From Patescibacteria group bacterium (lineage in GTDB: Bacteria > Patescibacteriota > Patescibacteriia > JACRDY01): a DNA stretch of 64,000 nucleotides. The stretch covers positions 9,308 through 73,307 of the forward strand of contig JBAZBH010000004.1 in NCBI GenBank assembly GCA_041671565.1, read 5' to 3'. The position numbers and the translations under genes were made by a program. A model generated the notes under the pieces. The model made no database searches. It had not been told where the DNA came from and saw nothing but the letters and a program-made list of their open reading frames with translations. Of the stretch, positions 6,549-40,305 are shown one piece after another. The stretch's first letter is position 1. Every line of letters starts with the position of its first letter.

Positions 6549-9500
6549 ATGTTTAAGAAATTCAGTAAAATTTTTTTGGTGCTAGGTTTGACCGCAGTTT
6601 TGTTGCTGACGGCTTTTGGCGTCAGAACCGCGCTGGCGGCTGATGCCACTGACCTCGGTTTGTCTTATGTTAGCAATAACACCATATTGCCGACCGGCGA
6701 CATTCGGGTGTTGATTGCCAATATCATCCGCTACGCGCTGGGACTCCTCGGGATCGTGGCGGTGGTGATTTGCCTTTACGGCGGCTGGCTGTATATGACT
6801 TCGCAGGGCAATGAAGAGCAGACCACCAGGGCTAAAGCCGTTCTCCGCGACGGGCTGATCGGCCTCGCGATTATTTTGCTCGCTTTTGCCATTGTTTCCT
6901 TGGTCTTTAATTTCTTGGTTAATGCCACTAACCCAGGAGAAAGCTGCGCGCCTGGTGATCCGCCTCGGGGTTGCAATTGGGCTCCAGGACCTAATTGTTC
7001 TGGCACTCAACGCTGTGAGAGTAATAACCGTTGGGGCGGTTGTATTCCCAATTACCCGATACCACCTGAGTGCGAACTTCGTGATCAATTCTATATTCAT
7101 CATTTTTCGCCGCCACCTTATCCGCCGGTTACCGACCCATCAAAAATTGGTTATTGGCATGCGATTAAAGTCCGCAATGCGACCGAGGAGATAACTTTTA
7201 GCATGGCGGTTAATCCCGAGACTTTATTTGAAACCGCGCCAGATTCAGCGGCGTCGACTGCGGAGCCGGCTTTTATTGTGAGTAAAACATTTTTAAGTTT
7301 AAGCGGTGTTGATTATAGCGACCACTTGGTGATGACGGCGTCCAAGACCGGAAACGGAATAGAGATATTGTCAAACGGACAGAATGTGGCGCCTCTGGCT
7401 GACGGCATAAATAATTTCAAGTGGGCGGTCGTCAAGGTGACTGGCGGAAATTGGTCGGGCGACAACATCACGGTGATATTCCGGACTGATCAAATAACCA
7501 ATCAAGGTGATCTAGAGAGCTGGCTCGGCCAGCACAATGACATTGACGCGGGAAATTATACGGTGGTCAATATATTTGCGGTGGAAATTGCGGCCGCCGG
7601 GGTAGGCCATGACTACTTTACAGAATTCCCGCCAGCGGCCACCTATGCCGCCGGATCCGATCCGGCTGGCAGTATTTATTTGAACTACAGCGCGGCGGAG
7701 GCCGCCCAATCTGGTTCGGCGCGCATTAAGGTTTATAATCTCGGTATTACTTATGACCCAGCGAGCGCTGATCCGGCTAGGCATTTAGACGCGGTGGGCC
7801 AGCAACTTAAAGATATGTCAGAAGCTGATCTCAAGGCTTTGATGTTGCCCGATAAGCAAGTAGCCGGTGATTTGGTGGTGGTCAATGGGACAATAGTAGC
7901 GTTTAACCCGTCCGCGCCTTGCCCGGCAGGCCATGAGACTTTCTTTTGCTTTGATCAAAATACGGCCTATGGTGTGCTGGTGCTACCGGGTGTGGAAAGC
8001 CAGACGGGCAAACGGCTATTAGTGGACAGCGCTTGGCCTGATTTTGCTTACTTCTTGACCGGCGACAAAATCGACACCGAAGCGCCGGCAGTTACCTTAA
8101 ATATGCCGTTTGAAGGCCAGGGAGTTTGCGCCGACCAGTTTAACTTATCACCCGCCCAGAGCAATCTACAAAGTGACGCTCGGGATGACACCGAGATTAC
8201 GCGGGTGGCTTATTCAGTTTATGACGCTTCCGGTCCCCGGGGGCAATTGCCGATTCATTATTTTATTGATGGTGGCACTGGAAAAATTATGCCGAATACA
8301 GAAGCGTTATGGCATATTGACTATCCGAGCGGCGGACCGCTACCCGATAAGTATATTTCTTATGGTTCTTGGGATACTTATGGCTTTACATTTGTTACTC
8401 CACCACCACCGCGGGTGACTGTCAAAGCCGAAGCTCATGACTGGAATTTGAGTGTGGAAGACAGTAATACGGTGGTGATGCGGGCGGATCACTGTTGTAA
8501 TGGGAAAAAAGACCTCGATGAAACCGGAGTTGATTGCGGCGGGGCGTGGTGCGGCGGTTGTGACGGCGACGCTTGCAGTCTGGATACACAGTCTTGCCAG
8601 CCTGATCCCACGCTTTGCGCTTCCAGTTTTTGCGATCCGACCACCTGTGTTTGCCGGCATTTGCCAATCATTACTGAGGTGGATCCGGGTAATGGCGCGC
8701 CCGGCAATTTTATTACTATTTATGGCAAGTTTTTTGGGTCGCAGATCGGGCAAGTGGTATTTCTCGGCGCGGCTGGAGCCGGCGACGATAAAGTTGCTAA
8801 ATTACCGAACGAAATTAACCCGGCTTGCGGCAATACCTGGCAAGATGAACAGATTGTGGTGGCGGTGCCAACTGGCGCGGTTGATGGCCCAATTAAGGTG
8901 GTGACGGCGGGCGGCTTGGAAGACACCACCGAGTCCGGACCTTTACACCAAAGATATCCGGAAGAAGTGGTAATGACTTTTGATGTTAATCTGACTTTGC
9001 GGCCGGGGGCTTGTTTACTTCGTCCCGCGAGCGGTAAATTTAGCGAACAGGTGGATATTGTTGGCACCGGCTTTGGCCTGGGCACCGGCACTAGTGACAA
9101 AGTTTATTTTGGTACTATCGTTGGACCGGCAGTGGCTAACAGTTGGACACAAACGACGGTCGGGGCGCAGGTGCCAAATATCGCGGGCGGGCAAACCGTG
9201 GCGGTCAAAGTGCAAGTTGGGGCGGAGCAGAGCAATGGGCTGAGGTTTAATGTTACCGACGAAGGGGATAATAATTTTCCGCAGATTAATTATTTGGATC
9301 CGGTTGATGGCAATATCGGCCAATATGTGACAATTTTTGGCAAGAATTTTGGCGGCGACACCGGCACGGTGTTGTTCACTTATAACGCCGGCAGTGAAGC
9401 TCAGACCGCGTGGGGCGACTTTAATTTTCCGGCCGGTTGCGGCCAGACTTGGTCTGATAGCCAGATCATTGTTAAAGTGCCGCCGAGCTTTTTAAGTATT

Positions 9501-12500
9501 GGCGAGGTTCCCGGCGGGCCGCTGGTGTTGAATGTTAATTATAAGGTTAGCGTCAAGCGCCGGAACGACGGAGCCGAGAGCAATGCCGTGACCTTTTCCA
9601 CGGTTGATCGGGCGCTTAGCCCGGGCATTTGCCGCCTGAATCCGGACAACGGCCCGGAGGGCACGCCGGTTTACGCGTTGGGTGAAAATTTTGGCGCTTC
9701 CGATGAAGAGAAGAACGGATTTTTATTCTTTTCTTTAACTAAAGCTGATAATGTCGCCCGTGCCGGAGTGCCGCTCTGGGGCGATACCGCGGCTAAAGTT
9801 TTTGTGCCAGCGGAAGCCAATACCGGACCGGCTTATCTTTATAATCAAGGCTATTTTCCTTATACCGGCAAAAGCAATGAGGTTGGTTTCCGGGTCGGCG
9901 CCTGCACCCAAAATCTTTGCAATAATTATCCTGATGGCCTGGCCTGTAATAGCGGTAATCGCGGTCAACACGCGCCGGACGGCGCTCGCTGTTGGCTGTG
10001 TCTCGCTAACGGCTGGGAGTGGGATTACACGGCCGCGGATTGCAGCAGTCAGTTTAAAGATTGTTGCGATGACGGCGTTTGTTTAGATAAAAAATCCACT
10101 AACCCTCAGCCTTGCGCCACCCGCGGCAACAATTCTTCGCTTGCCTGGGCGTTTTCGACTGGTGAGATACCGGTTTATCCCCGCGTGGTGGAGGAGTGCA
10201 CTCAGTCGCTAAGTTGCAATCAAGCTAATCTGCCCAGCCCCAGCCCTTGGACGCCGGATTTTGACATTGATCGGGAATATGAGCTGGCTTGCAGTAACTC
10301 GGTAATTACCGCCCGTTTTACCGCGCCTATGAAACCGACTTCTTTTATTTATTTGACGGCGAGAAGTCCAGATGTCTATAAAGATGGCACTGGCGCCATT
10401 CAGCCAGCGTCAGCCACGGCCACGGTTGAAGTTAAAAAATGCGTAACCGCGGTGGTGGTTGATAATCATTTTATTAGTTGCAGTAACTGGGATAATCCGC
10501 TGCCGGGCGAACCGGAAATGCCGCCCAGCCCTGATAGTTTTCAATTTTATCCCGGCAGTAAAGCCGTCGGCACGGCGTTAGACCCTGATAGCTGGTATCA
10601 AGTGACACTTTTTGGCCGGCCGGCCGGGCAGACAAGCGGGGGACTGGTGGGGGTGAATGACTATCCGTTGCAGCAGAATTATGTTTGGCAATTTAAAACC
10701 CGTTCGGCTGCTGACGAGCCTTGCAAGGTGGGCTGTGTGACTGTGACGCCACCCAGTGTCACCGCCAGATTTTTAGGGCCTCTTCATCATTATAGCGCCG
10801 ATGGGATTGAGGGCGATCTTTGGTATCACCAGGCCTTTATTAGCGCCGAAGATAGCCCCTGTAATTTAATTAATGCCAGCGCTTATGGTTGGCTCTGGTA
10901 TGCGACTCAAAATGAGTTTATTAGGAAAGGTGCACGGGTAAACCATATCGCCTATAATCGGGTGAATGGCGCGCCGGATAAGCAGTTGGTTACCGCCCAG
11001 TTTGAGACCGCCGGTTTGCCAGTATTGTTGTGGGCCGAAGAAACATCTAGTCATCATAAAAATAAGGGCGATGTGTATGTCGATCTGGTTGACCCGCAGA
11101 TTATCGCCCGCTGGCCGGATTGTGGCACGGCTTGCGTTAACGCGCAGATTGGCGCGGCGTTTAACACCGAGATGGTCGCAAACGATTTTGATAGCGCCGA
11201 TACGGTTCAACTATTTTCCTGCGGCACTGATGCCACTTGTTCCGGCGTTATGGCCAGCGTGCCAATCAGCGATGTTTTTTATCAAGATCAAGACCAGCGC
11301 GCAACTTTACCGCCCGGCCATTATTTTCACGAATTAACCTTTAACGCCTCGGCGGCGCTCCTACCTAACATCTATTATCGGGTGGTGATCAAAAATACGG
11401 TTCAGAGCGTTGACGGCGTCTTTTTGACCATACCCAATGCCGCTGATCGTTATGACAGCAATCCGCAGGATGGCAATGTTGACGGTTATAGCTGGATTTT
11501 CAAAACTAAAAATGATTTTAACCTTTGCGCGATCGGTCGGGTGGCGGTGTCGCCCGCGGCGGCCAAACTGATTTGGATACCGGATTACCAGTTTTTTGGC
11601 GCGCAGGCTTATGGCTTTCCTGATGATTGCAACCAGTATGGCCAACGATTGGTTAATAGCTCTTACGCTTGGGATTGGGCGGCGACGGATAAAGCTAATG
11701 AACCACCATACGAAAATCCGGTGGCCAGAATTTCTCAGGTGCCGGCAGTCGGTTGCGGCAACGGCCTGATCAACCGCGGCGAGGACTGCGACGCTGGCCC
11801 GCGGAACGGCTTAGTTGGCAGTGGTTGCACGACCCAGTGTTTACATACCGGCAGTGTGGCTGGCGGCACTTGTCGTAATGGCGTGGTGGATGTTGGCGAG
11901 GAATGTGATTATGGTGAATTGGTAAATAATGATGATGACAGTACTAATTATAGCTTAAAATATTGTGATTCCGTCACTTGTTTGCGGTTGGGTAACGGCA
12001 ATAGCGGCACGGTTTGCGGCAACGGCCTCTTGGAGCCTGGCGAAGCGTGCGACACACTCTTTGAACCCAATGGCGATGATAGCGATGGTTGCACTGACCA
12101 CTGTACTCATTCTGGTAGTTTGCCGCTAGCCGCTGGCGGCACTTGCGGCGACGGCCGAGTGGGTCTGGGTGAGGAATGTGAAAGTTGTCTGGTGTGCCAA
12201 GGGGGGACGGCAGCTAATAACTGTTCGGCTAAAGAGCCAACCGCGGCGGCTTGCATCATGCCTTGTTCAGTGCGGACAGCCACTACACCTTACTGGGAAT
12301 GCACGGGGGCGACTGGTTGTTCGGCTAAAGGTGAAACCTCTTGCCGCGCTGACAATGCCTGTGTCTGGACCAGAAGAACTTTAGCCTGCGAGACACCGAC
12401 GGCATCCAGCGAGGGTTGTTACACTAATTGTTTATTACTAAATGGCGATTTGTATAAATATTCCGGCAGTAATTATTCAACTTCTATGTCGGTTTGCCAT

Positions 12501-15500
12501 AACGGTCTGGTGGAAATCGGCGAGGAGTGCGATTTGGGGCTGCCAATCAATATTGGCGGCGCGGATAATTATAGATTAAATCAGTGTAACTCTGCCAATT
12601 GTTTGAATGCCGGCGCTCCAATTTTAACAACTTATGCGCCGGCCGGCCCGTTTCAGATTGCCACTTCGGTTAATGAAGGCTTTTCTGAAATCACCGCGGC
12701 GGCCGGCGGGTTTTGCGCTAGCGACCACAGTAAAGCTTGCGTAGCCAATTTTGATTGTCCGGTTAATGACACCTGCGACATTAGCCTCCAAAAGAAGAAT
12801 GACCCGGTGTCCGAACTGGAAGTGGTCTGCCATCTGGCCGCTGAAGATTGCCCTTATTCCACGCCTAGCGACCTTTTTCCCAGAGGACTAGATAGCAATG
12901 GTTGTTGCCGTCTGCGGCCGCAAGTCGCGGTGATGGTGCCGGCCAATAACCCTGACTCGGATTGGGAGTGTGTCGGTCCGGGTACTTGTTCGAGTAACGG
13001 CCGTAGCGCTTGCCTAGCGGATACTTCATGTTCTTGGACTAGAAAAAATGCGGTTTGCCGCAATACCGTGATCACGGCTTCGTTTAACTATCCTGATGGC
13101 ACCGTTACATTAGAGGCCATGGATGCCAGTAGTTTTACCAAAGATAATGTGGTTTTGGAATATAATAACGGCTTGAATGTCTGTCCGGGAGCGCCGGTCA
13201 GTTTCTTACAAAATAAGTTCCCCTGGATTAAAGTGTTTGGCCAAGATGGCTTGTTATCTTGGGGTTATCACAAGTTAGGGGAGCTAGCCAAAAAGTTTTT
13301 GGGCCAAGACGCTTTAGCCGATGCCCGGCCGGAGGATATCTGGTGTCCGGTCAAGTCTTCAGTCACCGGCAGCGGGGATAAATTGGAGGTTAATCTCTTA
13401 GAAATGTTGCCGGCGAATAAGCAAATCCGGGTGGTAGTGAAAGAAGGTGTGAAAGACAGCCACGGCACGCCGCTCGGTAATTTCAATCACCGAATAGTTG
13501 ACGGGCTCGATATCTCTTGCAACGACCGAGATGGCAATGCTAATGGCTGTAATAGTTTTGTTTGGACCTTTAATACCGGCGCGGATATTTGTCTTTTAAA
13601 CCGAGTAGTGGTTGATCCGCTACAGGCTTCTTTGAACTACCATTTTGACGCCGCCACCCAGCTTGATGGCAGTTATTACGACCCGAAAGCCACCGCCAAG
13701 AGTTCTAACGGCCCGATCCAAATGGTGCCGGGGACTTATAGTTGGACTTGGAGTTGGTCTAAGGGCAGTTTGCCGGACGCCGTGGCGACGATGACTGATA
13801 ATCGATATTGTTCCGAAAATCCGTCGCAGGTTTGCACTAATAATACTGTTGCTTGCGCTAATGACAAAGGCGCTTGCACGGCTGACGCCGCGCCGAGCGT
13901 TTTAAAACATTGTTCCGGCGATCCAACGGTTGATTGCACCGCTGACGCCACGGTTTGTAAACCAAATTGCGTTTCTCACGACCAGCAAAAGGTTATGGCC
14001 CAGCAGCAAAACGGCGAAGGTGTGATCACCGCCACGGCTAAAGTTAATCAGGTTGACCCGTCGCTCGTGAGTGAAACTTTACTGGGCGCGGCTTATTCCG
14101 GCGAGTCGCAACTGGTGGTTTTCTTCTGCAATAATCCTTGGCCGCGGGTTTGTAAACATTATGATGCTAATTCTAACTCGTGGTTAACAAGCAGTCCTTT
14201 AACACCTTGTCAGATTGGTGATGATTTACTTGATGATGATTGCGCGGCGGGGGACAGTTGCAGTTTTGACGCTTGGGGACTGGAAGATTCGTCAGACACA
14301 GCGGTTCCGGCTTTCTTAAGCAATCCGGTTTATACCAATTTTAAAACTTATTATTGCCGCGATGCCGGCGCTGCTGACCGGACTAGCGACGATTTGCCCT
14401 CACTCGCTTTCCCGCCAACCGTGATTCCGCCCAATATACAGCCGCTCGGAGTGGGCGGCAGTAGCCAGCTTCTGCGGCACATGCTCCTGCCACGGGCGAT
14501 TGATTCCTCCTTCTGGGGGAGTGAGATTGGCGGTTCCAGCGACGCGGTGATTATCAGCGTGGAAAAAAATATTGAGCACCTTTCGCCGGCGCTTTGGTTC
14601 ACCGAGAAGTTCGGCGGCGCGCCCACGGCGGAAAAAGTTGACGGCTATGAGGCGGTCAATTCGGGCAACACGCATTATATCAACGCCGGTAATTTTGTGC
14701 CGGCCACCGGGGAAACTAATTATGGCCCCTGCGTCTTGCCTGCCGGTAACGGTGTTTGTCGGCTACAACCGTCGTTAGCTTGTCAAAATGACGGGCAGTG
14801 CCGTGTGCCTAGCGATAGTAGTTGGACTAGTAGAACCAGTATCCCTGATCGGAGTTGGCAGTCGGTCGCTTATGGTAATGGTAAATTTGTTGCCGTGGGT
14901 CAAACTGATATAGTGATAACTTCACCGGATGGCATTAACTGGACTAGTCAAACCGCCATTAATAATACCTGGCAATCCGTCACCTATGGCAACGGCATCT
15001 TTGTGGCAGTGAATGATTCTAACACCGGTGATCGGGTAATGACTTCGCCAGATGGCATTACTTGGACCAGCCGACCAGCTGATTATGGCCAATATACTCA
15101 ATGGCAATCCGTCACCTTTGGCAATGGTAAATTTGTGATGGTGAATAGCAATGGTACTGGCAATCAAGCGATGACTTCACCGGATGGCATTAATTGGACT
15201 AGTCAAACCACGCCGACCCCCAATAATAGTTGGTCTGCCGTCACCTACGGCAATGGTTTGTTTGTGGCCGTGGCTGATTCTGGCGCTGGCGTAATGACTT
15301 CACCGGATGGCATTACTTGGACCAGCCGCACCGCCGTTGATAGTGAATGGCGATCTGTCACCTATGGCAACGGCTTATTTGCAGCCGTGGCAATATCATC
15401 TGGCTCCCATCCTAGAGTAATGACCTCACCGGACGGCATTACTTGGACTAGCCGAACTGCCCCGGCTCAGCTTTGGTCATCCGTCACCTATGGCAATGGC

Positions 15501-18500
15501 TTGTTTGCGGCCGTGGCTTATTCTGGTACCGGCAATCAAGCCATGACTTCACCGGATGGCATTACTTGGACCAGCCAAACTCCCGCTCATAATTTTTGGT
15601 CCGCCGTCACCTATGGCAATGGCTTGTTTGTGGCGGTGGCTTATGGCGGCGGCACTGGCAATCGAGTGATGACTGCTTCGCTCTCAGCCGGTGGGGAAAC
15701 CGATTATGGGCCTTGTGATATTGCTACCGGCGGCACTTGTGAACTCAACTCGTCTTTAGCTTGCCAAAATGATGGCCAGTGCACGGTTCATAGCGGCGGC
15801 GGTGTCAACGATCGTTTATACACCAATATTTACATTTTGTCCCAGACCGAGAATTCTAATTCCAACACCAATAATATCTTCCAACAGTTGTTGAGGAATT
15901 TAACCTTTAACACCAATATCCCCAGCTCTAATACTTGTTTTAAACAAATCGGGGCCACCCCCCAAGAAATTTTGGACGCCGATGGCAATCCGGTGGTCTG
16001 TAGCCAAGATGCCGACTGTTATCGCTGTTCTCCGAACATTTCTGTCGCCAATCCTAACCCGGATAAGATTTGCGAGATTAGTGACGATTGCGCGGCGCCC
16101 GGAACCACGGCGTTGGAGTGTGATGCCGATCGTCCCGGTGTCACCATTACTTGCAACAGCCCCAAACTTAAAGTTACCCGCAATGTCAAACGGGCGGCGG
16201 ATATTCATGATACGCGCAGTCTCCTGGCGGCCTATGGCGAACAGCATAAAGTTGATAATATCAAAACTTACCCGAGTTTAGCCGCCGGCAGTTATCTTAA
16301 TGGCCAATCTTACAGCGCTTGGCCGTCCTGGCAGGCGACGCTGGGCAATGCGCTTGGCCGCACGCTGGCAATTGATCCGCTGAATGCTTTTTATGGTTGT
16401 AGCGCGCCTTATAATTCTACCACTTGCTGGGACCAGAAGACCCTGCGGTTTGCTTGTCCGGCGAAGTCTTACACCTATTATTACAGCGTGGCGCCGGATC
16501 TGAAGACTTATCGGCTGCTGGCTAATTTTGAGCAGTTTAGCACTACGCCGATAGCCGATCTTTGGGATGTGTTTAAAGATTATGAAAGCGTATTGCAGGA
16601 GGTTTGTTATAACTTTGAAGGGCGGAATTTTGACGATTACGACCAGGACGGTGTCAAAGACAGCGTGGATAATTGTCCGGGCGACAAGAATGGCTATACC
16701 TTGCCTTGCGACGGTTCTAATGACGGACTGTGCTGTCCGTACGACGATGTTCGCTTTTGTTGCCCTTATTATAATCCTGATATGCCAGATACTGATCCGG
16801 GTTTTGATGCCATGATAGCGGCGGTACGGGATAATTGCGGCCACACCAGGACCGGCCAAGCCGATACTGACGGTGATGGTATTGGCAATACTTGCGAAGA
16901 TTGTCCGAATGACGCCAACCATAATGACGCGGATAACGACGGCTTATGTGGGCAGGAGGATAATTGCTGGATGATTAGTAACCCAGAACAATTGGATAGT
17001 GATAATAGCTGTCCGGAGCCGCCATTTTATACCAGCGGCGCTGATCCCCAAACTTACGATCCGGCCTGCGGCGATGTTTGCGATTCTACCTGTCGCGGCC
17101 TGGGCGATGATGATTGCCAACAGGTTTGTGAGGGTAATAATAATGTTTGGTTAAATCAGGGCGGGCAGTCTAACTGTTGCGGCGACGATCCGGGTGAAGG
17201 CGCGGTGGGGACGATTGAAACCGGTAGCCAGTGCTTTGACGGCATTGACAACAACTGCGACGGCCGGATTGACGAAAGTGTTGACCCGGACAGCGACGGC
17301 GCCGGCTCCTGCGACCGGCCGGTGGCGGATTGTAATAACGATCCCGCCAGCCGTCCCGTTAGCGGTTCCGATATCTATCCTGGGGCAACCGAAGATTGTT
17401 ATAATAATATTGATGATAATTGCAATGGATTACTCGACGCCGCTGATCCGCAGTGCGCTCTTGTTACTTTTTCTCTTTCTGAAGCCATAACCCCGACTAC
17501 CGATTCTTATTATATTAAATTTACTAAAGATGATGATCCTAATTTTGTCGGTATGGTCGGGGCGCCGCAGGGCGTTTCCTATGGCCTACCCAATGAATTA
17601 GTTTGTTTTGGCACTAATACTTCCGGTGTCGTGCCAGCGCCATACCGAGCCTGCTTTGATAAATCCGGGCAAAGACCATTTTCAGATTTTCAAGGGTTTA
17701 TTTTGCCAGTCGGTAACTATACGGCCGAGATTTATCCAATTGAACCTAGTTCGGCGGTTGGCGATTATAGCCTGACGGCCAGCCAAAATGTTGCCGTTAC
17801 TGATATTTCTCATCCTAGCTGTGTTAATAATAACTACCTTAATTATGGCGCGGCTGACGGCGGACATTGCCTGCCGTGGAGCCATACCGAGTTTTGGGCC
17901 GACGCCTCTGATTGCGCCCTGACTGTCGGGGGGAACCATTATACTGATCCTAACTATTTACAAGCTTGGGGCGTGGATGGAAATGTTTTAACCACGCCAA
18001 CGAGAGAGCAACAACATTGTTTCAATCTCGCGCCGACTGATAAATATTACACTTTTCGGTTGGATAGCGACCATAGTGTTTTAAACGCGCCTTTACCCGA
18101 CTTTGAAAATACTTTTGTCGGCGCTGAATATGATTGGCAAGGTGTGGCTTATGGCGAGAACACATTTGTGGCGATTAGCGCTGACAAGGTAATGACTTCA
18201 GCTGACGGCGCCACTTGGATTGCCCGTAACGGTGGCGGCATGCAAGATTGGCATAGTGTGGCCTATGGCGGTGGCAAATTTGTGGCCGTAGCCAATAACG
18301 GCCACGCTGGCCTTAAAAGGGTGACGATTTCCGATGACGGCATTACTTGGCGGTATGGGATGTCTACCGGAGATCGAGAGGATGATTATCAGAGCATTGC
18401 TTATGGCGGTGGCAAATTTGTGGCCGTGGCTAGCGGCACTGGCAATCGAGTTATAACTTCGTCTGATGGCATCGCCTGGACTGCCCACGCTACTCCAAAC

Positions 18501-19082
18501 AACAATGATTGGCAAAGTGTGGCTTATGGCGTTGTCCAGAGCCGCGGCACATTCGTGGCCGTGGCTAATTCCGGCACCGGCCGGATTATGACTTCAACGG
18601 ATGGCGCCAGTTGGACGGCTTTAAATATCGGCGACGCTTATGATTGGCAGAGTGTGGCTTATGGCGAGGGCAAGTTTGTGGCGGCGGGCACTGATAGCGC
18701 GGGCAAATTAGTTGAAGCCTTTTCCGATGGCGCTAGTTGGACAGTCAATGTTTCGGCTAATACCGGCAAAGTGTATGCCTTGGCTTATGGCGGCGGCACA
18801 TTTGTGGCCGTGGTTGATAGCGCCGCGGGTAAGCAAGTAATAACTTCACCTGATGGCGCTAGTTGGACACCTTCGCCCAACCACACGCTGGATAATGATT
18901 GGCGGAGCATTGCTTATGGCGGCGGTAAGTTTGTGGCCGTGGCTAGTTCCGGCGTGGGCAACCGAGTGATGACTTCTTATAATGGCATTGATTGGGAACC
19001 CCAAGCCGCGGCGGTTTCGCCTAACCCAGTTTATTGGGATCCGGATGTTTTAATTAAATTTAGGTTTACCGTTACACATTAA
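6549..19082 (+). CDS. Giant (4177 aa) surface/adhesin-like protein with the same N-terminal pilin-like domain, followed by IPT/TIG domains, Cys-rich repeats, TSP3 Ca-binding repeats and two BNR/Asp-box beta-propellers
   Basis: N-term DIRVLIANIIRYALGLLGIVAVVICLYGGWLYMTSQG...LAFAIVSLVF. IPT/TIG-like ITEVDPGNGAPGNFITIYGKFFG (x3). CGNGxxExGEECD Cys-rich repeats. DQDGVKDSVDNCPGD / DTDGDGIGNTCEDCPND TSP3 repeats. About 7 + 8 repeats of WxSVxYGNGxFVAV...MTSPDGITWT, where SxDGxTW is the BNR/Asp-box. Confidence 0.8.
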   Translation: MFKKFSKIFLVLGLTAVLLLTAFGVRTALAADATDLGLSYVSNNTILPTGDIRVLIANIIRYALGLLGIVAVVICLYGGWLYMTSQGNEEQTTRAKAVLRDGLIGLAIILLAFAIVSLVFNFLVNATNPGESCAPGDPPRGCNWAPGPNCSGTQRCESNNRWGGCIPNYPIPPECELRDQFYIHHFSPPPYPPVTDPSKIGYWHAIKVRNATEEITFSMAVNPETLFETAPDSAASTAEPAFIVSKTFLSLSGVDYSDHLVMTASKTGNGIEILSNGQNVAPLADGINNFKWAVVKVTGGNWSGDNITVIFRTDQITNQGDLESWLGQHNDIDAGNYTVVNIFAVEIAAAGVGHDYFTEFPPAATYAAGSDPAGSIYLNYSAAEAAQSGSARIKVYNLGITYDPASADPARHLDAVGQQLKDMSEADLKALMLPDKQVAGDLVVVNGTIVAFNPSAPCPAGHETFFCFDQNTAYGVLVLPGVESQTGKRLLVDSAWPDFAYFLTGDKIDTEAPAVTLNMPFEGQGVCADQFNLSPAQSNLQSDARDDTEITRVAYSVYDASGPRGQLPIHYFIDGGTGKIMPNTEALWHIDYPSGGPLPDKYISYGSWDTYGFTFVTPPPPRVTVKAEAHDWNLSVEDSNTVVMRADHCCNGKKDLDETGVDCGGAWCGGCDGDACSLDTQSCQPDPTLCASSFCDPTTCVCRHLPIITEVDPGNGAPGNFITIYGKFFGSQIGQVVFLGAAGAGDDKVAKLPNEINPACGNTWQDEQIVVAVPTGAVDGPIKVVTAGGLEDTTESGPLHQRYPEEVVMTFDVNLTLRPGACLLRPASGKFSEQVDIVGTGFGLGTGTSDKVYFGTIVGPAVANSWTQTTVGAQVPNIAGGQTVAVKVQVGAEQSNGLRFNVTDEGDNNFPQINYLDPVDGNIGQYVTIFGKNFGGDTGTVLFTYNAGSEAQTAWGDFNFPAGCGQTWSDSQIIVKVPPSFLSIGEVPGGPLVLNVNYKVSVKRRNDGAESNAVTFSTVDRALSPGICRLNPDNGPEGTPVYALGENFGASDEEKNGFLFFSLTKADNVARAGVPLWGDTAAKVFVPAEANTGPAYLYNQGYFPYTGKSNEVGFRVGACTQNLCNNYPDGLACNSGNRGQHAPDGARCWLCLANGWEWDYTAADCSSQFKDCCDDGVCLDKKSTNPQPCATRGNNSSLAWAFSTGEIPVYPRVVEECTQSLSCNQANLPSPSPWTPDFDIDREYELACSNSVITARFTAPMKPTSFIYLTARSPDVYKDGTGAIQPASATATVEVKKCVTAVVVDNHFISCSNWDNPLPGEPEMPPSPDSFQFYPGSKAVGTALDPDSWYQVTLFGRPAGQTSGGLVGVNDYPLQQNYVWQFKTRSAADEPCKVGCVTVTPPSVTARFLGPLHHYSADGIEGDLWYHQAFISAEDSPCNLINASAYGWLWYATQNEFIRKGARVNHIAYNRVNGAPDKQLVTAQFETAGLPVLLWAEETSSHHKNKGDVYVDLVDPQIIARWPDCGTACVNAQIGAAFNTEMVANDFDSADTVQLFSCGTDATCSGVMASVPISDVFYQDQDQRATLPPGHYFHELTFNASAALLPNIYYRVVIKNTVQSVDGVFLTIPNAADRYDSNPQDGNVDGYSWIFKTKNDFNLCAIGRVAVSPAAAKLIWIPDYQFFGAQAYGFPDDCNQYGQRLVNSSYAWDWAATDKANEPPYENPVARISQVPAVGCGNGLINRGEDCDAGPRNGLVGSGCTTQCLHTGSVAGGTCRNGVVDVGEECDYGELVNNDDDSTNYSLKYCDSVTCLRLGNGNSGTVCGNGLLEPGEACDTLFEPNGDDSDGCTDHCTHSGSLPLAAGGTCGDGRVGLGEECESCLVCQGGTAANNCSAKEPTAAACIMPCSVRTATTPYWECTGATGCSAKGETSCRADNACVWTRRTLACETPTASSEGCYTNCLLLNGDLYKYSGSNYSTSMSVCHNGLVEIGEECDLGLPINIGGADNYRLNQCNSANCLNAGAPILTTYAPAGPFQIATSVNEGFSEITAAAGGFCASDHSKACVANFDCPVNDTCDISLQKKNDPVSELEVVCHLAAEDCPYSTPSDLFPRGLDSNGCCRLRPQVAVMVPANNPDSDWECVGPGTCSSNGRSACLADTSCSWTRKNAVCRNTVITASFNYPDGTVTLEAMDASSFTKDNVVLEYNNGLNVCPGAPVSFLQNKFPWIKVFGQDGLLSWGYHKLGELAKKFLGQDALADARPEDIWCPVKSSVTGSGDKLEVNLLEMLPANKQIRVVVKEGVKDSHGTPLGNFNHRIVDGLDISCNDRDGNANGCNSFVWTFNTGADICLLNRVVVDPLQASLNYHFDAATQLDGSYYDPKATAKSSNGPIQMVPGTYSWTWSWSKGSLPDAVATMTDNRYCSENPSQVCTNNTVACANDKGACTADAAPSVLKHCSGDPTVDCTADATVCKPNCVSHDQQKVMAQQQNGEGVITATAKVNQVDPSLVSETLLGAAYSGESQLVVFFCNNPWPRVCKHYDANSNSWLTSSPLTPCQIGDDLLDDDCAAGDSCSFDAWGLEDSSDTAVPAFLSNPVYTNFKTYYCRDAGAADRTSDDLPSLAFPPTVIPPNIQPLGVGGSSQLLRHMLLPRAIDSSFWGSEIGGSSDAVIISVEKNIEHLSPALWFTEKFGGAPTAEKVDGYEAVNSGNTHYINAGNFVPATGETNYGPCVLPAGNGVCRLQPSLACQNDGQCRVPSDSSWTSRTSIPDRSWQSVAYGNGKFVAVGQTDIVITSPDGINWTSQTAINNTWQSVTYGNGIFVAVNDSNTGDRVMTSPDGITWTSRPADYGQYTQWQSVTFGNGKFVMVNSNGTGNQAMTSPDGINWTSQTTPTPNNSWSAVTYGNGLFVAVADSGAGVMTSPDGITWTSRTAVDSEWRSVTYGNGLFAAVAISSGSHPRVMTSPDGITWTSRTAPAQLWSSVTYGNGLFAAVAYSGTGNQAMTSPDGITWTSQTPAHNFWSAVTYGNGLFVAVAYGGGTGNRVMTASLSAGGETDYGPCDIATGGTCELNSSLACQNDGQCTVHSGGGVNDRLYTNIYILSQTENSNSNTNNIFQQLLRNLTFNTNIPSSNTCFKQIGATPQEILDADGNPVVCSQDADCYRCSPNISVANPNPDKICEISDDCAAPGTTALECDADRPGVTITCNSPKLKVTRNVKRAADIHDTRSLLAAYGEQHKVDNIKTYPSLAAGSYLNGQSYSAWPSWQATLGNALGRTLAIDPLNAFYGCSAPYNSTTCWDQKTLRFACPAKSYTYYYSVAPDLKTYRLLANFEQFSTTPIADLWDVFKDYESVLQEVCYNFEGRNFDDYDQDGVKDSVDNCPGDKNGYTLPCDGSNDGLCCPYDDVRFCCPYYNPDMPDTDPGFDAMIAAVRDNCGHTRTGQADTDGDGIGNTCEDCPNDANHNDADNDGLCGQEDNCWMISNPEQLDSDNSCPEPPFYTSGADPQTYDPACGDVCDSTCRGLGDDDCQQVCEGNNNVWLNQGGQSNCCGDDPGEGAVGTIETGSQCFDGIDNNCDGRIDESVDPDSDGAGSCDRPVADCNNDPASRPVSGSDIYPGATEDCYNNIDDNCNGLLDAADPQCALVTFSLSEAITPTTDSYYIKFTKDDDPNFVGMVGAPQGVSYGLPNELVCFGTNTSGVVPAPYRACFDKSGQRPFSDFQGFILPVGNYTAEIYPIEPSSAVGDYSLTASQNVAVTDISHPSCVNNNYLNYGAADGGHCLPWSHTEFWADASDCALTVGGNHYTDPNYLQAWGVDGNVLTTPTREQQHCFNLAPTDKYYTFRLDSDHSVLNAPLPDFENTFVGAEYDWQGVAYGENTFVAISADKVMTSADGATWIARNGGGMQDWHSVAYGGGKFVAVANNGHAGLKRVTISDDGITWRYGMSTGDREDDYQSIAYGGGKFVAVASGTGNRVITSSDGIAWTAHATPNNNDWQSVAYGVVQSRGTFVAVANSGTGRIMTSTDGASWTALNIGDAYDWQSVAYGEGKFVAAGTDSAGKLVEAFSDGASWTVNVSANTGKVYALAYGGGTFVAVVDSAAGKQVITSPDGASWTPSPNHTLDNDWRSIAYGGGKFVAVASSGVGNRVMTSYNGIDWEPQAAAVSPNPVYWDPDVLIKFRFTVTH
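14850..15700 (+). repeat. Tandem ~135 nt coding repeats (7 BNR/Asp-box blades) inside the giant ORF
   Basis: Repeated ...tggcaatccgtcacctatggcaatggc...atgacttcaccggatggcattacttggacc... Confidence 0.65.
18128..19005 (+). repeat. Second tandem BNR/Asp-box blade array (about 8 blades) at the C-terminus of the giant ORF
   Basis: Repeated DWQSVAYGGGKFVAV...MTSxDGxxWT units. Confidence 0.6.
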
Positions 19083-23244: not shown

Positions 23245-24405
23245 ATGGCTGAGGTCAAGCCCGACATTGAAACTTTTGCCAAGATAAAAGTTTTGGGCAT
23301 CGGCGGCTCCGGCGGTTCGGCTCTCAACCGGATGATCGCCGCCAAAATTAAAGGCGTGGAATTTATTGCCATCAATACCGATGTGCAAGCGCTTTATTAT
23401 TGTCAGGCGCAGAAGAAAATCCATATTGGCAAGGCGGTGACCAAGGGCCTCGGCGCCGGCATGGATCCGGATTTGGGCCGGTCGGCGGCGGAAGAAAACC
23501 AAAACGAGATCCGCGACGCGGTGCGTGACGCTGATATGATTTTTATCACTTGCGGGCTAGGCGGCGGCACTGGCACGGGCGCGGCGCCGATTGTCGCCGA
23601 GATTTGCCGCGATGTTGGGGCGTTGACGGTCGCAGTAGTCACCAAGCCGTTTGCTTTTGAAGGCGCGCAACGGCGGGCGATCGCCGAAAAAGGTTTGGAA
23701 GAATTGCAGAGCCGGGTGGACACGATTATCACTATTCCCAATGACCGCCTCCTGCAAATTATTGATAAAAAAACCCTGCTTTTGGACGCTTTTAATATCG
23801 TTGACGACATCTTGCGCCAAGGCGTGCAGGGCATTTCCGAGTTGATTACCATTCCGGGTTTGATCAATGTGGACTTTGCCGATGTTAAGGCGATCATGAA
23901 AGACAGCGGTTCGGCTTTGATGGGCATTGGCCAGAGTAAAGGCGATAACCGGGCGATTGAAGCCGCTAAATCGGCGGTTGCGTCGCCGCTTTTGGAACTT
24001 TCCATGGAAGGCGCCAAGGGCATCTTATTTACCATTTGCGGTTCTAAGAATCTAGCCATGCAAGAGGTGAGTGAGGCGGCGAAGGTGATTACCGCTTCGG
24101 CTGACCCGGACGCTAAGATTATCTTTGGCGCGGTGATCAATGAAGACATGGGCGATGACATCAAGATTACGGTGGTGGCGACCGGTTTTGAAAAAGGCCG
24201 CAAGCCGTCGGAGGCCATGAATCAGCCGACCGGTTATAAGCCCAGCCGGTTTATTAGCCGGCGCCAAGACGAGGCGGAGGCCGAAGAGAGCGATGACGAA
24301 GATGATGTTAAGCCGCGGGTTTTCGGGCGCAAAAAAGTAGAAGATAAGCCGGCAGATGATGAGGAATTGGATATCCCGGCTTTCATCAGAAAAAAAATGA
24401 AGTAA
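23245..24405 (+). CDS. ftsZ: Cell division GTPase FtsZ
   Basis: [13 protein letters not shown], tubulin signature [10 protein letters not shown], acidic C-terminal tail with DIPAFIRKK. Confidence 0.95.
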
Positions 24406-24802
24406 ATTAGATAGCGGAGTAACGAGGCCTCTGGCCTCGTTGTGTTTTTAGCACAATCTCAGGTTGTGTTTTTTAGTTTATCTTACTAATTTTCTTTTGC
24501 CCATCGCCTGCGGCGGGCTTTGCTACTTTCTGTGACCAGAAAGTAGCGCAAAGAGTCCCGGGGTGGCCCCGCATGCGCAGGGGCAGGCAAAAAGCCCGAT
24601 CTTCGTGGCACCTGGGTTCTTCTCGCCCCGCCTCACCTCGCAGTCGCTACCTTTGGTTCTATTACCCCTATATATCGCTTTGCGGCAACATATATTTACT
24701 AGTTAGTAGAAAGGGTCGGTTCGTCTCGGTCCGCCAACTGGCGGACACCCCGGACCCCGATTCTGGTTGGTTTTGTACTTTTGAATAAAAGACACTGTAG
24801 AG
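24406..24802 (+). repeat. ~400 nt non-coding element, copy A (second copy at 48556-48989)
   Basis: Shares with copy B the 5' block aaattagatagcggagtaacgRggcc..ggcc.cgttgtgttttt, the core tactttctgtgaccagaaagta..aaagagtc..gggg, gttcttctcgccccgc and the 3' block ttttgaataaaagacactgtagag. Confidence 0.6.
24421..24449 (+). terminator. Intrinsic terminator after ftsZ
   Basis: aacgaggcctctggcctcgtt hairpin + gtgttttt. Confidence 0.6.
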
Positions 24803-24888
24803 ATGTTCTTAAATAAAAACTTAATTTGTATGAGGATGGTAGTTTGTTTCTGGCTTTTTGCGGTTATTTTTGCTAAGATAAGAGTAAT

Positions 24889-26298: not shown

Positions 26299-26345
26299 TA
26301 ATTTAATAAAGAGACGCGCCGCGGCGCGTCTCTACTAGTGCTAAC

Positions 26346-26900
26346 ATGTCAGATGATAAATTTAAGAATAAATATCGGATACCGTCGGCGCGTTTAAAAA
26401 ATCATGATTATTCCGGGGTTGGTCTATATTCGGTGACCATTTGTGTGAAAGATAGAAAATGTTGCTTGGGGGAGATTAAAGACGACAAGGTGGTTTTATC
26501 AGCGATTGGAGAGATAGTTAGAGAAGAATTGCTAAAAACGCCACAAATGCTGCCGAATGTTTTATTGGATACCTGGATAATAATGCCGAATCATATTCAT
26601 GCCATTTTTGAGATCATGTCTACCGGCGTAGAGACGCGCCGCGGCGCGTCTCCGCAGAATCAATTTGGTCAAATTTTTAGAAATTCCATCCCCGTTATTA
26701 TTAATCAATTTAAGGGTTCGGTCGTTCGTCGCATAAACCAAAAATACGGCCCCGGCCATTTTGCCTGGCAACCGCGCTATTACGACCATATCATCGCCGA
26801 TGAAAGGGAATATAACAATGTTGCTCAGTATATTCTGGATAACCCGAGCCAATGGCCGAAAGACGAGAATAACCCAGTAAACTTTAAAAATGCCAAATAA
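26346..26900 (+). CDS. REP-associated tyrosine transposase (RAYT) / IS200-like Y1 HUH transposase
   Basis: HuH motif IIMPNHIHAIF and catalytic Tyr region QPRYYDHII. The palindrome gagacgcgccgcggcgcgtctc lies upstream (26311-26334) and again inside the ORF (26628-26651). Confidence 0.75.
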   Translation: MSDDKFKNKYRIPSARLKNHDYSGVGLYSVTICVKDRKCCLGEIKDDKVVLSAIGEIVREELLKTPQMLPNVLLDTWIIMPNHIHAIFEIMSTGVETRRGASPQNQFGQIFRNSIPVIINQFKGSVVRRINQKYGPGHFAWQPRYYDHIIADEREYNNVAQYILDNPSQWPKDENNPVNFKNAK

Positions 26901-37967: not shown

Positions 37968-40184
37968 ATGGTAATATATAGGTATATGCCATGGAAACTT
38001 CCGATCCCATCAAAAATAAAAAGGATTGAGACAAAGGATAAAAAAGAAGCGGCTAGTTTTAAAAAAGCCGGTTTTTCTCAAAAAAGAATGAAAAGCGGCA
38101 AGTTTGTTTTAGAAAGAAAACTCCCAAAATGGGAATACTTTCAAGAAAAAGTTCGTGTATTTTTAGATGTTCTTGGATTTCAGGATATTGAATGTGGACA
38201 ATCGGCTCGATTGGGGAGATATCAGATTGATGTTTTTGGTGGGTACGAAGGGACCTTTTTGGTTTTTGAATGCAAAAGTGTTAACGAACCAAAGCGAAAA
38301 ACGATTAGACAGATTATAAATGATTTTGCCGGAAAAAAAGCAGAAATAGAGCAAGCAATAAGAGAAAGATTTGGTTCTAAATACAATGAAGTTAAATTTA
38401 TTTTAGCTCTCGAAGAAATAGACATTTTAGAAGAAGATGAAAAAACTGCTCGTGAAAATGATATTTATATATGGGGTAGTAGTTATTTAAAAACTGGTGA
38501 AGATCTCTTTTCACTTATTGGTCCGTTGGCTTTACATTATGTTTTAAAAGAATTAGGTGTTAGTTCAAAACCCATTAAAGATGAGGAAGGAGGGGCTGAT
38601 TATAAAGTTCCAAGTTTTCGTATAACGGTGGGAGATCAACAATTATATAGTTTTTTTCTTCCTGCCGAAAAATTGTTAAATTTAGTGTATGTTTTTCGTC
38701 TTCAGCCGGGGAATGAAGATGCCTATCAAAGATTTATTTCAAAAAAACGTATTCTCGGAACAAAAGATGAAATTGGTATAACTGATTTTATAAACAACGG
38801 CGGATTTTTTAAAAACACCGTTGTTTGTAGTTTTGAAAGGCAAGTCCATTTTGAGGCAAAACCAACTGGTCTTTTATTGCAATCAACAAATATAGAATTT
38901 GGTATTTTGAGCATTCCAAAATTATATGGAACAGTTTGGGTTATTGATGGACAACATAGAATCTATGGTTATGCCGGTGCAAATCCTGAAACTAAAAAAT
39001 CACATATTGGGATAATGGCTTATCAAGATATTGAAAAAAAACGTCAAGCAAAAGATTTTATTGATATTAATCAAAAACAAAAATCAGTAGATCCTAATAC
39101 TCTTTGGGATTTACTTTCCCAAACAGATCCATATTCAATGCAGGGTGCGATAACAAAAATTGCTCGCGGATTGAATAAAAATGGAATTTTTAAAAATAAA
39201 ATTTTAATTCCAGGGAAAATGTTTCATGGTAAAAAATCATTATATCCATTAAAAATAGCCAATATTTGTAATAGTTTGTATGATCGCAGATTACTTGACT
39301 ATAAAGGCCGCGACAATTTATATAAAAGAACTTCAGATGTAGCGGATAGTAATTATTACCCGGATAGTGTTATAAACTACCCAGTAGATGTCCTTAATCA
39401 GTATTTTTCTTTACTTTGGGATATTGCAGACAAAACTCCAGAATGGAGAAAGGGGTTTATCATTCAAAATAATGGATTTAATATTTTTTTGCGCGTTCTC
39501 GCAGAAGTTTTGAAATTTCAAAAAGGCAATTGGGATAAACAGGTAGCAAAAGAATTAATGGATGAACCATTGAAATTATATTTTGAAGAGCAGTTTGAAA
39601 AAATAAAAGATATAAGGATCTCAACAAGTAATGAGGCGGGTAGAGCAAAGGTTGCTTTAGAAATTATAAAGCATATTAACCAGAAACAAGAGTCTTTTGC
39701 CCGTGAATTTATTGCGGAAACAGAAAAAAGAGAACGGTCGGCTTTTGAAAAATTAGAGCCTTATCAAACATTAAAAGAATTAGAAACAAGTTTAAGGGTT
39801 TTTATTGAGGAAAAATTAAAGCAATTAACACCAAATTGGTGGAAACAAAGAATCCCATCGGATGTTCAGGAAAAAGCTGAAGAAAACATGGCTAAAAACG
39901 AAAGTCCTTGGCCATGGGTACCAATAGAGGAAAAATCGCCGATCTTTTATATTAATTTTCCTGATTATGGGAAAATAATTCAAAGAAAAGATAACTGGAA
40001 TGATATTTTTTCAAAAATATTTAAAGATTCTAATATAATCTTTTCTTGGTTGAGGGAGTTGGAGGATATCCGCAATAAAATTGCCCATTTTCGTCCTATT
40101 TCCGTTGAAGAGTCTACCACCCTTAGACTTAATACAAGTAAAATTATAAAAACTATCAAACCAACAGAAGAGAAAGAGGAGTAG
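37968..40184 (+). CDS. Three-domain fusion: PD-(D/E)xK (Mrr_cat-like) nuclease + DGQHR (DndB-like ParB-fold) domain + C-terminal HEPN (Rx4H). Candidate defense protein on an AT-rich islet.
   Basis: N-term FLDVLGFQDIECGQSARLGRYQIDVFGGYEGTFLVFECKS (D..ExK); middle GTVWVIDGQHRIYGY; C-term WLRELEDIRNKIAHFRP (R-N-K-I-A-H). About 36% GC versus about 50% flanking. An alternative start at 37986 is possible. Confidence 0.75.
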   Translation: MVIYRYMPWKLPIPSKIKRIETKDKKEAASFKKAGFSQKRMKSGKFVLERKLPKWEYFQEKVRVFLDVLGFQDIECGQSARLGRYQIDVFGGYEGTFLVFECKSVNEPKRKTIRQIINDFAGKKAEIEQAIRERFGSKYNEVKFILALEEIDILEEDEKTARENDIYIWGSSYLKTGEDLFSLIGPLALHYVLKELGVSSKPIKDEEGGADYKVPSFRITVGDQQLYSFFLPAEKLLNLVYVFRLQPGNEDAYQRFISKKRILGTKDEIGITDFINNGGFFKNTVVCSFERQVHFEAKPTGLLLQSTNIEFGILSIPKLYGTVWVIDGQHRIYGYAGANPETKKSHIGIMAYQDIEKKRQAKDFIDINQKQKSVDPNTLWDLLSQTDPYSMQGAITKIARGLNKNGIFKNKILIPGKMFHGKKSLYPLKIANICNSLYDRRLLDYKGRDNLYKRTSDVADSNYYPDSVINYPVDVLNQYFSLLWDIADKTPEWRKGFIIQNNGFNIFLRVLAEVLKFQKGNWDKQVAKELMDEPLKLYFEEQFEKIKDIRISTSNEAGRAKVALEIIKHINQKQESFAREFIAETEKRERSAFEKLEPYQTLKELETSLRVFIEEKLKQLTPNWWKQRIPSDVQEKAEENMAKNESPWPWVPIEEKSPIFYINFPDYGKIIQRKDNWNDIFSKIFKDSNIIFSWLRELEDIRNKIAHFRPISVEESTTLRLNTSKIIKTIKPTEEKEE

Positions 40185-40305
40185 GGGAGTTTTGTGGATG
40201 AATATCTATAAGTTGATATTCTCTGGGCGAGTATTGTCCCGAGAATTTTTTGTTTATCCTTTACCCCACCCTTGGGGATAACTGGCTATTTACCCCTTAA
40301 CGGCG

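Follow-up and report, generated by a model that had tools for sequence, protein, structure and literature searches.

A 64-kb window of a Patescibacteria genome (64,000 nt of contig JBAZBH010000004.1) holds two copies of a non-coding element of about 400 nt, which we tentatively read as belonging to a family of structured non-coding RNAs that is restricted to one lineage, low in copy number and dispersed. The family would be a candidate new class, with copies flanked by detachable terminator modules and modules resembling repetitive extragenic palindromes (REPs). The genomes of Patescibacteria are tiny and densely packed with genes, and very few non-coding RNAs have been described from the group. 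Because at least five copies of 300 nt are kept in such a genome, with a fold preserved across subtypes and species, the element is unlikely to be junk.

Copy A sits in the ftsZ–cysS spacer (ftsZ stop at 24405, cysS start at 24889), and copy B between an ABC exporter gene (stop at 48552) and a convergent ZIP-transporter gene (49048–49791, minus strand). A first-pass annotation of the window had named four shared blocks, and each recurs exactly: AAATTAGATAGCGGAGTAACG at 24404 and 48558, TACTTTCTGTGACCAGAAAGTA at 24524 and 48779, GTTCTTCTCGCCCCGC at 24616 and 48848, and TTTTGAATAAAAGACACTGTAGAG at 24779 and 48966. All are on the + strand without mismatches and occur only twice in the window, against a chance expectation of 0.00–0.02 matches (shuffles). 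The similarity extends ∼8 nt beyond the end previously assigned to each copy (..GTAGAGnnGTTCT, to 24810 and 48997). Both copies were said to begin at a stop codon; copy A does (ftsZ stop, 24403–24405), whereas copy B starts 6 nt past 48552. The intrinsic terminator proposed at the start of the element was found in both copies by a terminator scan, as two tandem hairpins in copy A and, in copy B, as one scored hairpin plus a second one followed by TTTTAGTTT. An extra ∼120 nt (48640–48759) separates the terminators of copy B from its core. The sequence between the blocks does differ in each copy, as first described, but it is not free: further pieces (CAAAGAGTC, ACCCC(C)GA and a GTCCGCC..GGCGGAC hairpin) are common to both interiors, and helices are kept by compensatory changes.

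A search for further copies, which had been suggested at the outset, brought in four more members and a family of six, with nhmmer E-values of 5e-103 to 1e-41. Three of them (L003, L004 and L005) lie on Ga0172379 metagenome contigs and were found by a metagenome scan with a 20-mer from hairpin H2 of the core. Their BLAST identity to copy A is 84.4% over 314 nt (L005), 81.2% over 277 nt (L003) and 78.7% over 338 nt (L004). Because window positions 313–2664 match another Ga0172379 contig (L053) at 99.3% identity, these three copies most probably belong to the window's species. The genome would then most probably carry at least five copies, four A-type and one B-type, and we take copies A and B to be paralogues that represent these two subtypes. 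The sixth member (L048, on a Ga0378408 contig, minus strand ∼9260–9030, between gmk and rplS) is divergent and was classed as type C. It comes from a sister species with an FtsZ 83% identical to the window's, and its nhmmer E-value went from 1e-12 to 1e-41 with the updated profile. The similarity is thus confined neither to the terminator block nor to the two copies in the window, so the outcome that the first-pass annotation had named as fatal to its proposal (no additional copies, and similarity in the terminator block only) did not come about.

Wider searches added nothing to these six. Searches with nhmmer and motifs over all relatives' loci gave nothing beyond L048. Among 185,579 GTDB representative genomes the H2 20-mer had no match, and the pattern CAAAGAGTC..CTTCTCGCCCCGC had two, which nhmmer showed to be chance. 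Three patterns found only chance GC-rich matches in viral contigs, and BLAST against phages and plasmids returned no match to the element. A comparison with Rfam 15, also recommended at first pass, covered models including HEARO, group II intron, retron, T-box, riboswitches, 6S, RNase P and tmRNA. At gathering score it identified four tRNAs only in the window and no family on either copy; at E ≤ 10, the best matches to the two copies had E-values of 0.65–0.68 (17.6–20.1 bits, vs. gathering cut-offs of 35–38 bits).

Aligning the six members showed that the termini are separable modules, and we take the family unit to be an internal core of ∼230–320 nt. The initial description, conserved termini around a variable interior, therefore put the emphasis in the wrong place: the termini are detachable, and the part kept in every member is internal. 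It comprises hairpins H1 and H2, a linker CAAA(G/A)AG, the 5' arm of a long-range helix (H3), a short hairpin (P-x), a joining strand CACCUnnGUUCUUCUCGCCCCGC, a variable arm (P-y), the H3 3' arm and ACCCC(C)GA.

The 5' module, made up of a box (TTAGATAGCGGAGTAAyG) and two hairpins each followed by a U-run, is present in copies A, B and L003 and missing in L004, L005 and L048 (three of six). In copy A, the box AAATTAGATAGCGGAGTAACG spans 24404–24424 (exact twin at 48558) and the two tandem intrinsic-terminator hairpins, each with a T-run, span 24419–24476. In copy B the module covers 48558–48639, with the conserved box, hairpin 1 at 48573–48597, and hairpin 2 at 48608–48631. The core of the box, TTAGATAGCGGAGTAA, is also found in L003, and a variant of it in L004 (4929–4944). 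Over the 46 nt of the module, copies A and B have three differences, all of them compensatory in hairpin 1, and among copies generally the terminator hairpins differ in sequence with their pairing kept. At the other end, the 3' block CTTTTGAATAAAAGACACTGTAGAG is found in the A-type and B-type copies and is missing in L048. The 3' module of copy A (24774–24810) consists of a hairpin TGTACTTTT[GAAT]AAAAGACA, the segment CTGTAGAG and a small hairpin TAGAG-ATG-TTCTT; that of copy B (48961–48997) consists of TTTTGAATAAAAGACACTGTAGAG and TAGAG-GAG-TTCTG. Copies A and B are identical at 25 of 25 nt of this block and far apart in their cores, while L004 and L005 have cores close to copy A and a more different 3' block, in which the hairpin keeps its pairing via U-G changes and a loop insertion. 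End modules and core thus have different histories.

On the + strand, the core would fold in the order H1 (a variable GC hairpin), H2 (a near-invariant hairpin), the linker, and H3 (GU-bulge-NNGGGG ... CCCCN'N'-AC), which would close a three-way junction before the tail ACCCC(C)GA. The predicted junction would contain P-x, the invariant C/U-rich joining strand and a P-y of variable length that tolerates inserted hairpins. To score covariation, we cut constructs from the three subtypes and compared the pairs of H2, H3 and P-x (24 pairs, 72 cells). All 72 cells pair and none is broken, and eight of the 24 pairs changed on both sides, compared with 2.6 ± 1.4 in shuffles and 0–1 in register-slid controls. 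These two-sided changes fall at three positions in H2, three pairs in H3 and two pairs in P-x. H2 (11–13 bp with a U(G/A)AC loop) reads GCUACUUUCUG[UGAC]CAGAAAGUAGC in subtype A, GUUAC..GUAAC in B and CUUACUUUUUG[UAAC]CAAAAAGUAAG in C. H3 reads GU(C)CCGGGGU...ACCCCGGAC in A, GU(C)UUGGGGG...CCCCCAAAC in B and GU(U)CCGGGGG...CCCCCGGAC in C, with the bulged base in the same place in all three, and P-x reads CCGA..UCGG, GCGA..UCGC and GCGC..GCGC, respectively. The additional copies and the covariation, an analysis the first-pass annotation had called for, support the structured RNA family that it listed among its options, as far as sequence can, and mark the internal fold as a candidate for selection on a branched structure kept via matched base changes.

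Folding energies gave a z-score of −4.05 for copy A and −2.82 for copy B. Enforcing H3 costs 0–11.5 kcal/mol relative to the unconstrained optimum, and H3 belongs to the minimum-energy fold in L004. In the constrained fold, H3 closes a three-way junction with P-x and the long arm, and RNAalifold of the A-type copies agrees. Length differences between copies are hairpin insertions at helix tips (two in copy A and one in copy B, located below). A helix AGAGUC/GAUUCU, predicted by RNAalifold for the A-type copies, was dropped owing to its failure in L004 and L048; all subtypes instead keep the GU..AC extension with the bulged base. A search for a third segment that would complement J1 and X2, two short motifs that co-vary, found none.

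The features of the core can be followed along copy A (all on the + strand). An AT-rich spacer (24477–24498) carries a TAATTT box 8–13 nt before H1 in the alignment of the six 5' flanks, possibly a −10 element. H1 (24499–24518) is a GC-rich hairpin, and a hairpin sits here in six of six members with varying sequence and length. The 11-bp H2, GCTACTTTCTG[TGAC]CAGAAAGTAGC (24522–24547), has an inner 22 nt identical in five copies. It is followed by GCAAAGA and the H3 5' arm, GT-C-CCGGGGTG (24548–24565), which pairs with 24746–24755. An inserted hairpin specific to copy A, CCCCGCATGCGCAGGGG (24567–24583), belongs to a 21-nt insertion missing in L003, L004 and L005. P-x (24594–24609) has the form GCCCGA-TCT-TCGTGGC (GCGA-CTGC-TCGC in B and GCGC-AAGTAA-GCGC in C), and the invariant, pyrimidine-rich joining strand CACCTGGGTTCTTCTCGCCCCGC (24609–24631) is predicted to be unpaired between P-x and P-y. 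P-y (24626–24745), as drawn by RNAalifold from the A-type copies, is a long variable arm with an ATATAT hairpin tip and tentative internal pairs; an inserted hairpin GTCCGCCAACTGGCGGAC occupies 24729–24746, and the length of the arm falls from ∼105 nt in A to 70 in B and 60 in C. The H3 3' arm CACCCCGGAC and the conserved CCCGA complete the core (24746–24760).

Copy B follows the same plan on the same strand. Its extra segment (48640–48759) includes a REP-like hairpin with a GTAG tag, GTAGGGGCAATCCACGAATTGCCCT (48702–48726), 33 nt before H1. The H1 region (48760–48776) and H2 (48777–48802, GTTAC..GTAAC) are followed, within 48803–48863, by the linker CAAAGA, the H3 5' arm GT-C-TTGGGGG (48809–48818), P-x (48829–48840) and the joining strand (48841–48863). 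P-y, with a hairpin GTCCGCCTCCGGCGGAC (48880–48896), leads into the H3 3' arm CCCCCAAAC (48932–48940) and CCCCGA (48858–48946 in all). Past the 3' module, copy B and the convergent ZIP-transporter gene have a bidirectional terminator hairpin in common (49008–49036), and an analogous terminator follows the copy in L005.

The non-coding status assigned to both regions held up, with no credible open reading frame (ORF) in either. A six-frame translation of copy A compared with 5.8 billion predicted proteins found no protein, and an exact look-up of ORFs inside the elements found none on record and none called in public annotation. The copies differ by indels of 1, 8 and 21 nt, the 1-nt indel lying between H2 and CAAAGAG. 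In six-frame translations no frame is open throughout all copies, no ORF is common to the subtypes, and no hydrophobic peptide is encoded. A protein-coding element is ruled out by the frame-shifting indels, the lack of a common ORF and the lack of a protein homologue.

Several observations bear on strand and transcription. Hairpins of the 5' module qualify as intrinsic terminators in the scan (24419–24443, 24450–24470 and 48573–48597) with covarying hairpin sequence, and these terminators, like those after copies B and L005, fit the + strand. The + strand is also favored because a few one-sided substitutions, which L004 and L005 have in the H1 extension and L005 also has in its 3' hairpin, give U-G pairs there and would be C-A mismatches on the minus strand. 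Transcription of the element would thus probably proceed from the + strand, and a TAAT-type box 4–15 nt before H1 is the only candidate promoter signal. The 5' terminator module tracks the orientation of the upstream gene, being present where that gene is co-oriented (copies A, B and L003) and missing where it is divergent (L004, L005 and L048). With six copies, this rule is no more than suggestive of an independent unit.

The copies are dispersed among unrelated loci, adjoining ftsZ, cysS, the ABC exporter, the ZIP transporter, a DsbA-like gene, secG, a DHOD-like gene, rplS and gmk. The downstream gene is co-oriented for copy A (cysS) and L004 (secG) and convergent for B, L005 and L048 (ZIP transporter, rplS and gmk). 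Because it varies in this way, the element is not expected to be cis-regulatory. We compared the ftsZ locus in five relatives with FtsZ 82%–86% identical to the window's. The ftsZ–cysS spacer is element-free in L041 (147 nt) and L045 (92 nt), and in L037, L039 and L042 the neighborhood is rearranged or elaborated and the element is likewise not there. The rplS–DHOD spacer, where L005 carries its copy, is only 118 nt and element-free in L048, whose own copy sits in the adjacent gmk–rplS spacer. As a side observation, relatives can have arrays of their own after ftsZ (an 'aatcccaag' palindrome in L041 and a TTGTTAT tandem in L043).

The element also accounts for recurrent assembly contig breaks in this lineage. 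Contigs L001 and L002 end 36 nt past the ftsZ stop, the independent short-read contigs L054 and L055 end at window positions 48966 and 48975, and the L003 contig ends inside the core. Such breaks, the unrelated loci and the missing element at ftsZ–cysS in five relatives sustain part of the suggestion, made at first pass, of a non-autonomous mobile element; the hallmarks of a classical one did not turn up. The ends (TTAGATAGCGG.. or TTTGCCC.. vs. ..CTGTAGAGnnGTTCT) are not complementary, and a repeat scan found no terminal inverted repeats. Around the 3' module, where a target-site duplication was sought, the best direct repeats are 6–8 nt and are matched or beaten in 6%–59% of shuffles (p-values at the flanks of 0.5, 0.1, 0.06 and 0.6). 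Of the features expected of a non-autonomous IS200/IS605-type element (subterminal hairpins at both ends, conserved cleavage tetranucleotides and a fixed target motif), hairpins do lie near both ends of the long form, but three of the six members lack the 5' module and no fixed motif is common to the left flanks (TAAA in A and B, TTGG in L003). A classical miniature inverted-repeat transposable element was excluded on the lack of terminal inverted repeats and of significant flanking direct repeats.

Turning to genes that could move such sequences, we found a RAYT-like gene at 26346–26900, 1.5 kb from copy A, with an HUH motif. Its match to Pfam Y1_Tnp reaches 27.2 bits (cut-off 23), and that to NCBIfam REP_Tyr_transpos 55.6 bits (E 5e-15), the latter under the cut-off of 80. 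The ORF contains a perfect GTAG-headed palindrome, GTAGAGACGCGCCGCGGCGCGTCTC (26628–26652), encoding VETRRGAS, and an inverted copy lies at 26311–26335 (minus strand), 10 nt upstream of the start codon. Because the orthologue in L039 (14026–14053) keeps the palindrome at the same codons with a different center (GCAGCATGCTGC), the palindrome is a conserved hairpin in a coding region. What brackets the gene is its own palindrome rather than the element, and all that the palindromes have in common with the end of the 3' block (CTGTAGAG) is the GTAGAG head, a short motif. In one relative the gene is syntenic (cysS–RAYT–dus) with no element seen in 21 kb. GTAG-tagged REPs have been hypothesized to be mobilized by RAYTs, whose genes are typically flanked by their own repeats (PMC3733652).

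REP-like hairpins of another kind, also GTAG-tagged (GTAGGGGCGGACCCATGTGTCCGCCC and variants), occur at 48702–48726 of the window and in L003 (263–288), L004 (7660–7685 and 909–934) and L005 (9332–9357 and 5971–5996). They adjoin copies B, L003 and L004, several of them immediately 5' of the copy, and those at B and L004 sit 32–33 nt before H1. A REPIN-like inverted doublet in L004 (4860–4944, minus strand; arms TTAGATAGCGGAGCGACAC and GTGTCGCTCCGCTCTACTAA) has the TTAGATAGCGGAG box of the 5' module in both arms, along with a hairpin found in L003. These arrangements make RAYT-linked spread plausible for the accessory modules and perhaps for the whole cassette, in both cases as conjecture. Separately, solo motifs resembling the 3' block, AAAGACGCGGTAGAGAAGTTTG and AAAAACACCGTAGATAAAATTC, are found without a core in L005 (9286–9309) and in L050 (5610–5635, ∼1 kb past the right end of the window), each directly upstream of a terminator or a REP-like hairpin.

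In the structured-RNA reading, each copy would yield a stand-alone RNA of ∼300 nt, shielded by the tandem-terminator module from read-through where the upstream gene is co-oriented. The invariant hairpin and the single-stranded C/U-rich strand might let it act in trans, with a protein or a G-rich nucleic acid as partner; RNA targets complementary to UUCUUCUCGCCCCGC, if found, would point to a base-pairing regulator. The copies would have spread by a duplicative process at the DNA level, possibly shared with the GTAG-tagged REP-like hairpins that lie next to several of them. If expressed, the element would be a lineage-specific structured RNA in a group whose regulation is almost unknown and a tractable case for the spread of structured RNA in a reduced genome, with the GTAG hairpins and the RAYT-like gene as a testable route.

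Several points weigh against this reading. The ends of copies A and B are near-identical and their cores diverged, which a single RNA gene leaves unexplained. The distribution is very narrow, with nothing in GTDB representative genomes for two patterns. Fold energies do not separate the strands, the minus strand scoring equal or better, and a strict scan found no consensus sigma-70 promoter upstream of the core. Copies A and L004 are without a terminator of their own, although B and L005 have one downstream. No partner gene adjoins any of the six copies, all neighbors being housekeeping genes. The covariation comes from three distinct subtypes, with helices picked by eye, hand-cut constructs and a weak shuffle control. 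Pairing in P-y is uncertain, ∼13 of the 86 A-type RNAalifold pairs being broken in one sequence.

The alternative that we took most seriously, and still consider doubtful, is that the element is non-autonomous mobile DNA of a REPIN-like or IS200/IS605-type, palindrome-associated kind, moved in trans as single-stranded DNA by a Y1 (HUH) transposase such as the RAYT-like protein, with the conserved hairpins serving as DNA recognition structures rather than RNA. Dispersal to unrelated loci, ftsZ–cysS and rplS–DHOD spacers that are shorter and element-free in sampled relatives, and five short-read or metagenome contigs that end within the element would all be expected of it. So would a RAYT-like gene with an HUH motif close to copy A, GTAG-tagged palindromes next to copies B, L003 and L004, the GTAGAG head that CTGTAGAG shares with that gene's palindromes, and the recurrence of TTAGATAGCGGAG in both arms of the L004 doublet, GTAG-tagged REPs being hypothesized RAYT substrates (PMC3733652). 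Yet the element is about ten times the length of a REP and folds into a branched structure, no single hairpin, whose internal helices are kept by compensatory changes that recognition of the ends alone would not need. Mobility of this kind also fits poorly with the lack of terminal inverted repeats and significant flanking direct repeats, the absence of the proposed end modules from half of the members, the low copy number, and the syntenic RAYT-like gene in a relative with no element seen in 21 kb. The RNA-family and DNA-level mobile readings are not mutually exclusive. In a further scenario, to which we give little credence, the element is a new class of ornate RNA or single-stranded DNA that works with the genome's domesticated RAYT-like HUH transposase and GTAG-tagged hairpins, either as a cargo-bearing unit copied to new chromosomal sites by this enzyme or as its RNA cofactor or guide. 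If true, a RAYT would for the first time be functionally paired with a large structured nucleic acid, here in a candidate-phyla-radiation bacterium.

HEARO-type RNAs are ∼300 nt long, have an ornate fold and multiple copies per genome, and show a mobile-like distribution. The resemblance in all four respects, together with end modules whose history is separate from that of the core, raises the option, already voiced at first pass, that our copies are solo remnants of the RNA part of a larger element that is elsewhere or lost (an IscB/TnpB system with HEARO or omega RNA, an IS110 bridge RNA, a retron or a group II intron). We judge this improbable given that Rfam had no match even at E ≤ 10, including the HEARO, group II intron and retron models, that no nuclease, transposase or reverse-transcriptase gene stands next to any of the six copies, and that the 64-kb window has no IscB, TnpB, reverse transcriptase or integrase gene. 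Neither end has a variable guide-like segment either; H1 varies but is always a hairpin. Still less credible is that the element controls its neighboring gene in cis from a leader or 3' UTR, in the manner of a riboswitch, an attenuator or, for cysS, a T-box. Copy A does lie directly upstream of cysS and L004 of secG, and in the A-type copies and B the H3 3' arm can re-pair downstream, ahead of a U-rich tract. Gene contexts nevertheless largely refute the idea, since the genes after B, L005 and L048 are convergent and the neighboring genes have no common function; moreover, no T-box or riboswitch model matches, and the alternative hairpin on which attenuation would depend is not kept in L004 or L048. 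We regard a type I toxin–antitoxin or small-protein locus, comparable to the ∼400–500-nt LDR and QUAD repeats of Escherichia coli, as the least probable of all. It would suit a ∼400-nt intergenic repeat with a highly structured predicted transcript and long-range 5'–3' pairing, but the indels shift frames, no ORF is conserved between subtypes, and neither a hydrophobic peptide, a protein in the six-frame search nor an annotated ORF was found.

Among the closest known systems is HEARO, the IscB omega RNA (RF02033), which likewise is a ∼300-nt structured RNA with several dispersed intergenic copies and mobile-like presence and absence; unlike it, the element has no covariance-model match, adjoining HNH/IscB gene or 5' guide, and its distribution is much narrower. 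GTAG-tagged REPs and REPINs with their RAYTs (PMC3733652; PMC3116915) are also intergenic, palindromic, multi-copy and often just 3' of genes, and the window adds a RAYT-like gene with GTAG-headed palindromes, hairpins by three copies and CTGTAGAG in the 3' block. A REP, however, is a 20–40-nt hairpin or a symmetric doublet, whereas our element has a branched core of 230–320 nt without GTAG-hairpin architecture, about five known copies and a conjectural link to the RAYT. The definition of a REP (a 20–40-nt imperfect palindrome with an unpaired GTAG) applies only to the accessory hairpins at 48702–48726, L003 263–288 and L004 7660–7685.

Pneumococcal BOX, ERIC and Neisseria Correia elements also combine separable conserved modules with a variable middle, terminator- or promoter-like signals and stable folds when transcribed. 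Their sequences are unrelated, and our element differs from them in having no terminal inverted repeats or TA duplications and in internal helices that compensatory changes maintain from one species to another. Multi-copy trans-acting small RNAs (RsaE/RoxS and the Qrr paralogues) are similarly stand-alone intergenic cassettes with paralogues within one genome and an invariant unpaired C/U-rich stretch, but our element is three to four times longer and has a three-way junction, and a role in trans would here be deduced from sequence. The type I toxin–antitoxin repeats (LDR and QUAD/Sib-Ibs), also ∼400-nt intergenic repeats with long-range RNA pairing, differ in having a conserved small ORF, which the element has on neither strand.

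Other features of the window and its relatives deserve mention. At ∼40297–40437, inside a 341-nt gap, a near-consensus promoter (TTGACT-17-TATAAT) is followed after ∼110 nt by a terminator-like hairpin and T-run, possibly a small RNA, with no Rfam match. In the sister species, ∼2 kb (L048 4000–5900) adjoining a GIY-YIG gene has only tiny called ORFs (32–52 aa) and may be non-coding or decayed. Two likely defense genes stand among housekeeping genes, one fusing a DndB-like domain to a Swt1-type HEPN domain (37968–40184) and one encoding an Mrr-like restriction endonuclease (43644–44984). Low-complexity arrays that repeat every 8 nt (TAGGAGGT-type and CCAATG-type) form inverted pairs, each around a single gene: a signal peptidase gene, ruvX, a tRNA-editing gene and parB (226–270/1222–1266, 36197–36236/36717–36756, 56112–56148/56792–56828, 294–493 and 60787–60981/61854–62048). 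Finally, positions 4197–19082 encode a 779-aa protein with T4SS-pilin and Big_5 domains followed by a giant ORF of 4177 aa with many internal repeats of ∼125 nt (families D1–D5 and D11–D15).

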